From Escherichia phage Mizar: 64,000 nucleotides of DNA. The stretch's first letter is position 1. Each line of letters starts with the position of its first letter. Positions 41,803 to 42,142 of this stretch are shown one piece after another. Under the pieces are notes generated by a model, which was given only the letters and a program-made list of their open reading frames with translations, was not told the DNA's origin and ran no database searches. The position numbers were made by a program, and so were the translations under genes. The DNA is taken from sequence record PV714129.1. One strand, 5' to 3'.

Positions 41803-41810
41803 TATTTATA
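41803..41810 (-). promoter_or_regulatory. Late promoter motif TATAAATA (minus strand)
   Basis: Exact TATAAATA about 36 nt upstream of the 41767 start. Confidence 0.5.
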
Positions 41811-41816
41811 CAAAAA

Positions 41817-41840
41817 AGCCCCAACCTTTCGGAAGGGGCT
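41817..41840 (-). terminator. Rho-independent terminator
   Basis: Minus strand AGCCCCTTCCGAAAGGTTGGGGCT followed by TTTTTTG; near-copy of the rI terminator. Confidence 0.6.
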
Positions 41841-41845
41841 TTATA

Positions 41846-42142
41846 CCTTGTTGGGGTTTCCACCTACTAGGTAAGTGTTTGTACGAAACGCCGGGATTTG
41901 AACCCGGTTATTAAGTAGTTGACGCTACTCAATATTTTTAAAAGGCCATATCTCGACCATATCCGAACGTTCCGTCAAAAACGCTACTCGGCTTATGGCA
42001 AAGATATTTCCTCGAATCGATAATTCTGTGCGCCGTTTCTGCTGTGATGTAAGGGGATATTAACGAATCATAAAGATTTATTAAGACCAGTCCTTACTCA
42101 GGGAACATCAGTCCGACGACTTGCCGGTAGCGACCCGGCTTC
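41846..42142 (-). ncRNA. ORF-free structured region; candidate small stable RNA(s)
   Basis: About 300 nt without ORFs next to the tRNA genes; tRNA-like T-arm CCGGG-TTCAAAT-CCCGG; could not be folded into a canonical tRNA. Confidence 0.25.

Follow-up and report, generated by a model that had tools for sequence, protein, structure and literature searches.

The end of the tRNA operon in Escherichia phage Mizar: probable orthologs of the T4 stable RNAs rnaD and rnaC

Escherichia phage Mizar (sequence record PV714129.1) was analyzed in a window of 64,000 nucleotides (nt), to which all coordinates given here refer, and the piece under study comprises positions 41803-42142, downstream of the transfer RNA (tRNA) genes. 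The minus strand is the coding strand, and every gene in this part of the window runs in that direction. Our analysis indicates that the region is very probably the 3' end of the tRNA operon, composed of orthologs of the phage T4 genes rnaD and rnaC, a trailer hairpin and an intrinsic terminator, and that the two RNAs would be excised as stable species, whose function we can only guess at with low confidence. The rnaC and rnaD species have been recognized as stable RNAs of T4 since the 1970s, and finding the locus in a T4-like genome is expected, as it is a textbook T4 feature. About 50 years after they were sequenced, rnaC and rnaD still have no assigned function, as three papers note, and no Rfam family, as a result of which most deposited T4-like genomes lack an annotation of the two RNAs or carry a spurious 'hypothetical protein' here. 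The comparative models described below provide several handles on the two RNAs, including a tRNA-like fold of rnaC, a candidate kissing loop, distant homologs of rnaD and the embedding of both in tRNA arrays, and together with a published single-nucleotide polymorphism (SNP) in rnaD they point to a testable role in host interaction.

A blastn search with positions 41760-42160 against 50,697 phage records returned about 800 matching Tevenvirinae records, nearly all from Tequatrovirus and its relatives, which points to a T4-like phage as the source of the window. In the T4 genome (NC_000866) the corresponding interval is annotated with a pair of misc_RNA features (T4s002 and T4s001) located directly downstream of tRNA-Arg, namely rnaD or 'species 2 RNA' (71053-71171) and rnaC or 'species 1 RNA' (70908-71046). 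Both align with the window (Table 1), as do the trailer and the terminator downstream of rnaC, and the order rnaD, rnaC, trailer and terminator, as well as the strand relative to the tRNAs, is the same as in T4. The putative rnaC ortholog accordingly has tRNA-Met, tRNA-Asn and tRNA-Arg upstream on the same strand and a homologous trailer and terminator downstream. Across phage records, rnaC is 95-100% identical in 683 of 750, while the flanks diverge. The sequence-only reading, which was made without database searches, had guessed that the region might be the counterpart of the small stable RNAs beside the T4 tRNA cluster; the alignment to the annotated T4 genes, at the same place at the 3' end of the operon, bears this out, and the feature is one already known. 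In GenBank (records H1-H34 and H75-H118), most T4-like genomes leave rnaC and rnaD unannotated or under a 'hypothetical protein' coding sequence; the rnaC label is present in a few records only (RB10, RB5, Kha5h and T2L), and one record calls part of the region tRNA-Lys.

The region had further been described as free of open reading frames (ORFs), structured, and not foldable into a canonical tRNA, and these observations hold. The minus strand of 41812-42146 contains no ORF of 35 or more amino acids (aa), and between the stop codon of the ORF at 42143..42538 and the terminator the sole ORF of at least 30 aa is one of 34 aa with a TTG start on the opposite (plus) strand at 41919..42023. The same minus-strand interval folds well below shuffled controls. 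ARAGORN detected neither a tRNA nor a transfer-messenger RNA (tmRNA) inside the studied region, and the Rfam tRNA model (RF00005) had no match there at E<=10. Rfam 15 contains no family for rnaC or rnaD, and nothing rose above noise on the region at E<=10; on five divergent homolog loci, no family was found on the rnaC or rnaD coordinates at E<=5. The covariance-model search and the comparative folding that the earlier reading had proposed were carried out with different yields: Rfam offered no family, while models built in this study (R1 for rnaC and R2 for rnaD) match the region strongly, and folds backed by covariation across relatives were obtained for both RNAs.

Homologs of rnaC were collected from eight lineages (Tequatro-, Karam-, Kanagawa-, Teguna-, Gelderland-, Kagamiyama- and Marfavirus and one unassigned contig), and 20 sequences were aligned (alignment A4) and used to build R1. 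This model scores 162.3 bits on the window copy (E 1e-36) and 162.0 bits on T4, and its match spans 41879-42020, taking in the CAA tail. For the window copy the computed folding energy is -50.6 kcal/mol (z = -4.76), and none of 200 shuffles was as stable. RNAalifold applied to A4 predicted a four-way junction with compensatory changes in 24 of 40 pairs. In the counted structure of 42 pairs, 93.8% of the cells are paired, as compared with 39-51% when partners are slid by 1-3 columns; both partners have changed in 24 of the pairs, and none of these measures was reached in 500 shuffles. The acceptor-like stem contains a pair, the third, that is A-U in 8 sequences and G-C in 12, and its tandem U.U is replaced by Watson-Crick pairs (U-A, C-G) in Tegunavirus, where the stem is fully paired. 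The T-arm has a 5-bp (base pair) stem closed by G-C, and its loop is UUCRAAU; its letters, CCGGG-TTCAAAT-CCCGG, had been recognized in the sequence-only reading and are indeed present at 41907->41891 on the minus strand, within rnaC. An A-rich linker of 9 nt lies between the long arm and the hairpin at the anticodon position. Throughout the eight lineages the loop sequences are kept while the stems change.

The two apical loops of rnaC are complementary. The long-arm loop UUGACG (41978->41973) exactly complements the loop CGUCAA (41924->41919) of the anticodon-position hairpin, and all 6 pairs can form in all 20 sequences (120/120 cells paired, slid controls 17-50%). The loops also covary, reading UUGAUG/CAUCAA in Tegunavirus and UUGGCG/CGCCAA in Marfavirus, with different pairs affected. 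This suggests that the apical loops form an intramolecular kissing loop closing the molecule; we regard this as a well-motivated prediction, for which two independent compensatory events are modest evidence. A 9-nt string, GAGUAGCGU, occurs twice in rnaC (41980-41988 and 41925-41933, minus strand), leading into each of the complementary loops, and may reflect internal duplication or a shared constraint. A decoy loop of the colicin-E5 type (YGUN) was also considered for rnaC and dropped, Tegunavirus having CAUC there.

In the comparative model rnaC appears tRNA-shaped, a cloverleaf-like molecule with a four-way junction that is not a tRNA, and this is why it could not be folded as one in the earlier reading. 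Its 7-bp acceptor-type stem is continuous with the 5-bp T-stem, stacked on a T-arm whose UUCRAAU loop follows the T-loop consensus; missing are the D-arm, in place of which stands a 66-nt hairpin, and the 5-bp anticodon stem with a 7-nt loop. The next-best matches of R1 after the true copies are genuine tRNAs, aligned over model positions 1 to 143, and among the window tRNAs it gives 18.7 bits to tRNA-Asn and 15.7 bits to tRNA-Met. In these alignments acceptor falls on acceptor, the hairpin with the 6-nt loop on the anticodon arm and T-arm on T-arm, and a deletion at the D-arm position takes out the long arm. The placement of rnaC is in keeping with that of the tRNAs, since it is one unit, or 'bead', in their arrays: in Karamvirus (Entb_43 and VPA32) and Gelderlandvirus (Melville) it occupies the gap that separates tRNA-Trp from tRNA-Gly, leaving spacers of 2-8 nt; its neighbors in Kagamiyamavirus EcS1 are tRNA-Phe on one side and tRNA-Trp on the other, and it stands immediately before tRNA-Trp in Tegunavirus and immediately after tRNA-Met in Kanagawavirus. 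The tRNA arrays of Karamvirus and Gelderlandvirus contain other gaps of 100-240 nt (locus L002 636-775 and 852-979; L004 966-1178; L036 203-342 and 419-575), which might hold further non-tRNA structured RNAs. The Marfavirus copies of rnaC (L037 1200-1342, L041 and L042), from a genus outside Straboviridae according to the record taxonomy line, end in ...CGUUCCG-U-CCA-A, that is, in a discriminator plus CCA; other lineages have ACA or UCA.

Beyond the phages, a structure-aware rnaC pattern gave 0 matches in 185,579 bacterial and archaeal genomes, and blastn with rnaD and rnaC gave no match in 5,426 complete E. coli genomes; these scans therefore provide no evidence for a host homolog, a prophage copy or direct sequence mimicry of a host RNA. 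The metagenome scan with the rnaC pattern returned mostly Tequatrovirus copies, and the chance matches L024, L026 and L034 were discarded.

The second RNA, rnaD, consists of a 5' hairpin followed by a long hairpin of irregular shape. For the window copy the folding energy is -35.5 kcal/mol (z = -2.66), a value matched by 2 of 200 shuffles, and R2 scores it at 142.3 bits (E 3e-33). The long hairpin has an invariant base (GUCGUCG... with ...CGGCGCAC), and the conserved blocks GAAxCCGGGUCGCUACCGGxAAGUCGUCGGACUGA (5') and CACAGCWGAAACGGCGCAC (3') are both present in the window. The apex is variable, at least three unrelated modules being exchanged among close relatives, and the module found here differs from that of T4. 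Counting over an alignment fitted to the model, and hence leaning toward the model structure, 97.9% of the cells of 22 pairs are paired, 13 of the 22 pairs are compensatory, and 0 of 500 shuffles reach these values. Diverged homologs were found by R2 in Karamvirus, Marfavirus and Kanagawavirus (E 1e-4 to 1e-5), and they share the blocks AAGUCGUCG, GUUCCCUG, AUCACAGC and CGGCGCA. In four of five lineages checked the diverged rnaD starts 1-3 nt after a tRNA; such starts were seen in the T4, JS10, Karamvirus and Kanagawavirus copies, and the Marfavirus copies start about 50 nt after tRNA-Asn. Two phages carry rnaD without rnaC, Dhakavirus JS10, where it directly follows tRNA-Arg, and Gaprivervirus ECML-359. 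Taken together, the array-embedded copies of rnaC and the diverged homologs of rnaD behind tRNAs argue that both have long accompanied the tRNA arrays of T4-like phages and are conserved there. Reading rnaD itself as a tRNA was rejected, because its loop GUCGCUA lacks the T-loop consensus and the T4 end '...CACCA' is not conserved, the 3' ends in other phages being CACAG, CACCG, CACCT and CACCC. The site of the rnaD 5' hairpin was also flagged by the terminator scan, on the plus strand.

Downstream of rnaC, a trailer hairpin and a terminator complete the predicted operon end. The trailer hairpin was found at 28 loci, which gave 24 distinct trailer sequences and included phages without rnaC; a single compensatory change, G-C to A-U, is shared by this window and locus L035. 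The segment ACACUU...GGUGGAACCCCGACAAGG and the terminator form a module that is kept also by phages lacking rnaC. The T4 trailer carries a GCC-GCAA-GGC mini-hairpin which is lacking here. As DNA, the terminator reads GCCCCTTCC-GAAA-GGTTGGGGC (41839->41818) followed by T6 (41817->41812), a GC-rich hairpin with a subsequent U-tract as predicted from the letters; it is homologous to the perfect 10-bp T4 terminator after rnaC and is part of the minimum free energy (MFE) structure given by RNAfold. The stem has a tandem U.U here as compared with G.U/A-U in T4, and because of this mismatch the terminator was missed by a simple terminator scan. The features are listed in Table 1.

Table 1. Predicted features at the 3' end of the tRNA operon of phage Mizar (window coordinates)
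Feature	Position	Strand	Basis or remark
tRNA-Met (CAU)	43385-43459	-	ARAGORN
tRNA-Asn (GUU)	43307-43378	-	ARAGORN
tRNA-Arg (UCU)	42506-42581	-	ARAGORN
Putative rnaD (T4 species 2 RNA) ortholog	42027..42146	-	98/119 identical to T4 71053-71171, pairwise alignment
rnaD 5' hairpin, GCCGG-GUCGCUA-CCGGC	42123..42139	-	RNAfold; all 5 pairs covary across lineages
Six-nt spacer between rnaD and rnaC, AGAAUU (AAAUUA in T4)	42021..42026	-	Mapped from T4 annotation
Putative rnaC (T4 species 1 RNA) ortholog	41882..42020	-	136/139 identical to T4 70908-71046, pairwise alignment
rnaC acceptor-like stem, 7 bp, CGAUUCG with CGUUUCG, tandem U.U	42013..42019 with 41884-41890	-	Covariation
rnaC long arm, about 66 nt, at D-arm position, apical loop UUGACG (41973-41978)	41943..42012	-	Helices 3-6 covary strongly
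rnaC anticodon-position hairpin, 9-10 bp, 6-nt loop CGUCAA (41919-41924)	41909..41934	-	6/9 pairs compensatory
rnaC T-arm, CCGGG-UUCAAAU-CCCGG, acceptor 3' strand directly after	41891..41907	-	Two stem pairs covary
Trailer hairpin, CACUUAC-CUA-GUAGGUG, 7-8 bp	41861..41877	-	24 distinct trailer sequences, 28 loci
CCCCAAC (CCCCGAC in relatives)	41850..41856	-	Direct repeat of terminator 5' arm, complementary to 3' arm
Putative tRNA-operon intrinsic terminator, GCCCCUUCC-GAAA-GGUUGGGGC + U6	41812..41839	-	T4 homology, RNAfold MFE
Late promoter-like TATAAATA	41803..41810	-	Exact match to T4 late-promoter consensus; belongs to downstream ORF 41141..41767

As for the maturation of these RNAs, the SegB paper described a primary transcript of about 1.75 kb through the tRNA cluster with termination after the species I gene (PMC2330249), and a 2022 omics study reported both RNAs as late-accumulating and of unknown function, with confirmation by Northern blot (PMC9697503). 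The standing of rnaC as a unit of tRNA arrays suggests that it and rnaD would be cut from a polycistronic tRNA precursor by the tRNA-processing machinery of the host, namely RNase P and the tRNA 3'-end nucleases. RNase P would cut 5' of the acceptor/T minihelix of rnaC, an endonuclease and a 3' exonuclease would trim back to the stable stems, and the processed rnaC and rnaD could then accumulate as stable RNAs. Regarding function, the sole hint we found in the literature comes from the T4-like phage BW1, all three lines of which, when adapted to the host ECOR34, acquired one and the same convergent SNP in rnaD, the virulence index rising from 0.17 to 0.98 (PMC12685909). With low confidence, we propose that rnaC is a non-chargeable tRNA mimic that would occupy or titrate a tRNA-binding factor, and, with equally low confidence, that rnaD is a hairpin that binds protein or RNA and adjusts fitness on particular hosts through its variable apical module. 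The more specific suggestion is that rnaC is a self-closed tRNA mimic, its anticodon-position loop being held permanently by a codon-like loop of the long arm, and that it forms with rnaD an ancient array pair, spread across T4-like phages, which would influence host range by acting on tRNA-directed host factors, for instance by decoying tRNA-binding enzymes or the defence nucleases that attack tRNAs. This is consistent with the convergent SNP that adapted BW1 to ECOR34, though we consider it unlikely in this specific form.

Several points weigh against our account of the region and of its RNAs. In T4, rnaD begins 1 nt after tRNA-Arg, whereas in Mizar an ORF of 114 aa intervenes, its stop codon overlapping the first bases of rnaD, so the 5' end of rnaD must be made in a different way from that in T4; a position directly behind a tRNA 3' end is contextual rather than defining for rnaD. 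The encoded 3' tail of rnaC is UACAA (U-ACA-A) here, not CCA, and the acceptor stem contains a tandem U.U in most lineages. In Kanagawavirus (L005, L007, L016, L018 and L033) the whole fold is kept although UGCAUGC replaces UUCRAAU in the T-loop; an exact T-loop is therefore not needed in every lineage, which weakens models that need strict tRNA mimicry. Covariation gives no test of the invariant 3-bp helix from which the long arm rises, and the number of compensatory events behind the kissing loop is limited to the two described. A stable rnaC of about 140 nt has been shown by Northern blot for T4 only (PMC9697503), the Mizar copy being predicted from its sequence. The decoy function is purely our inference, reviews stating that the roles of rnaC and rnaD are unknown (PMC3014915).

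Among the alternatives, one would see in rnaC and rnaD nothing but decayed tRNA pseudogenes or inert spacer, persisting only between selected elements. T4 deletions of the tRNA region are viable in laboratory hosts, a point for inert RNAs and against a functional pair; rnaC aligns weakly to tRNAs and sits in their arrays, JS10 and ECML-359 do without it, and a function has been lacking for 50 years (PMC3014915). Such decay is nevertheless very unlikely in view of the near identity of rnaC in 683 of 750 records despite diverging flanks, the compensatory changes in 24/42 pairs of rnaC and 13/22 pairs of rnaD, the loops conserved across eight lineages while the stems vary, and the convergent adaptive SNP in rnaD (PMC12685909). 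The same SNP, being host-specific, could instead fit a trans-acting base-pairing small RNA (sRNA), with the apical module of rnaD as a seed for host or phage mRNAs and rnaC possibly acting likewise; the invariant base with its at least three unrelated modules swapped among close relatives would agree with this, and one paper terms both species small regulatory RNAs (PMC9697503). We hold an sRNA role to be improbable, since there is no known target, E. coli genomes contain no match at blastn sensitivity, and the variable module of rnaD is mostly base-paired internally. A small protein encoded in the region, implied by the 'hypothetical protein' features that many GenBank records place over the match, is scarcely credible: apart from these annotations only the 34-aa TTG ORF on the plus strand speaks for it, while the substitutions are pairwise compensatory in RNA helices and not codon-patterned, the products in T4 have been sequenced as stable RNAs and carry a misc_RNA annotation, and the short frame with which T4 rnaD begins has no start codon here (ATG -> ATA), for which reason a short peptide in rnaD was also rejected.

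The remaining alternative concerns the terminator, for which the sequence-only reading had proposed two mutually exclusive structures, CCCCAAC pairing with the 3' arm of the terminator stem. The complementarity is real and conserved: CCCCAAC (41856->41850) is a perfect 7-nt complement of GTTGGGG in that arm, and CCCC(G/A)AC is kept in all trailers, better conserved than the proximal 5' arm (GACC, UUCC, AGCC). From this one could construct a terminator/antiterminator switch in which the upstream motif competes for the 3' arm and regulates read-through into the downstream gene; two one-sided substitutions indeed favour the distal pairing (G.U to A-U here, G.U to G-C in locus L030), and about half of the terminator variants have a tandem U.U in the proximal stem. 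Energetically, however, forcing the distal helix costs 8.0 kcal/mol relative to the MFE structure here and 3.8-10 kcal/mol in six relatives, no double compensatory change was seen, and both helices end at the U-tract, so that neither is an antiterminator. The downstream gene has its own TATAAATA directly after the terminator, no ligand-binding or leader-peptide element was found, and Rfam gave nothing above noise. Regulated read-through is thus most doubtful, and an attenuator or riboswitch-type switch was rejected, the two folds being neither comparably stable nor such that only one of them would be a terminator. We accept the complementarity, but not as evidence for a switch.

With respect to the neighboring sequences, ARAGORN found three tRNAs in the whole 64-kb window (Met-CAU, Asn-GUU and Arg-UCU), as compared with eight in T4, and the order Met-Asn-Arg matches JS10 and many T2-like or RB-type phages. 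The ORF of 114 aa between tRNA-Arg and rnaD (42143-42489, minus strand) matches phrog_3355 (E 2e-50) and has a weak, sub-threshold match to DUF2654. Its end (GAU AUG CCA AAA UAA), which overlaps the start of rnaD, resembles the 3' end of T4 tRNA-Arg ('...AUACCAAAU'), as if an insertion had duplicated the tRNA 3' end. Between tRNA-Asn and tRNA-Arg, the ORF at 42567-43238 (minus strand) looks like a homing endonuclease, with weak matches to NUMOD3 and RAP just under the curated cut-offs, one to DUF559 just over its cut-off, and weak similarity to phrog_9084, a 'homing endonuclease' family. In T4 this slot is taken by the GIY-YIG endonuclease SegB, from which the ORF apparently differs in family. 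On the other side, the late promoter-like TATAAATA directly follows the terminator U-tract, about 35 nt upstream of the ORF at 41141..41767 (phrog_2280), and 'GTATAAATA' after the terminator is conserved in most relatives. Just downstream of that ORF, a GC-rich hairpin, GGGGACCGAAGTCCCC (41104-41140), overlaps CCCCTAAAGGGG and looks like its terminator, the scan having flagged the plus strand.

Among known RNAs, tmRNA, the Y-RNA-like YrlA RNAs, mascRNA and viral tRNA-like structures (TLS) keep the acceptor/T-arm minihelix, have their D and anticodon regions replaced, and are handled by tRNA-processing enzymes. The predicted rnaC fold shares with these mimics the minihelix combined with other structure elsewhere, and the Rfam models of tmRNA, YrlA and mascRNA had no match on the rnaC coordinates even at E<=5. 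It differs from tmRNA in having no tag reading frame, pseudoknots, G3.U70 or CCA and in measuring only about 140 nt; tmRNA was accordingly rejected as its identity, with neither ARAGORN nor Rfam reporting one and neither a tag frame nor a pseudoknot being found. In its loops, rnaC resembles kissing complexes of the ColE1 RNA I/RNA II and HIV TAR/TAR* type, which likewise bring together two covarying 6-nt loops of full Watson-Crick complementarity, with the difference that the pairing predicted for rnaC would be intramolecular, within one tRNA-shaped RNA.

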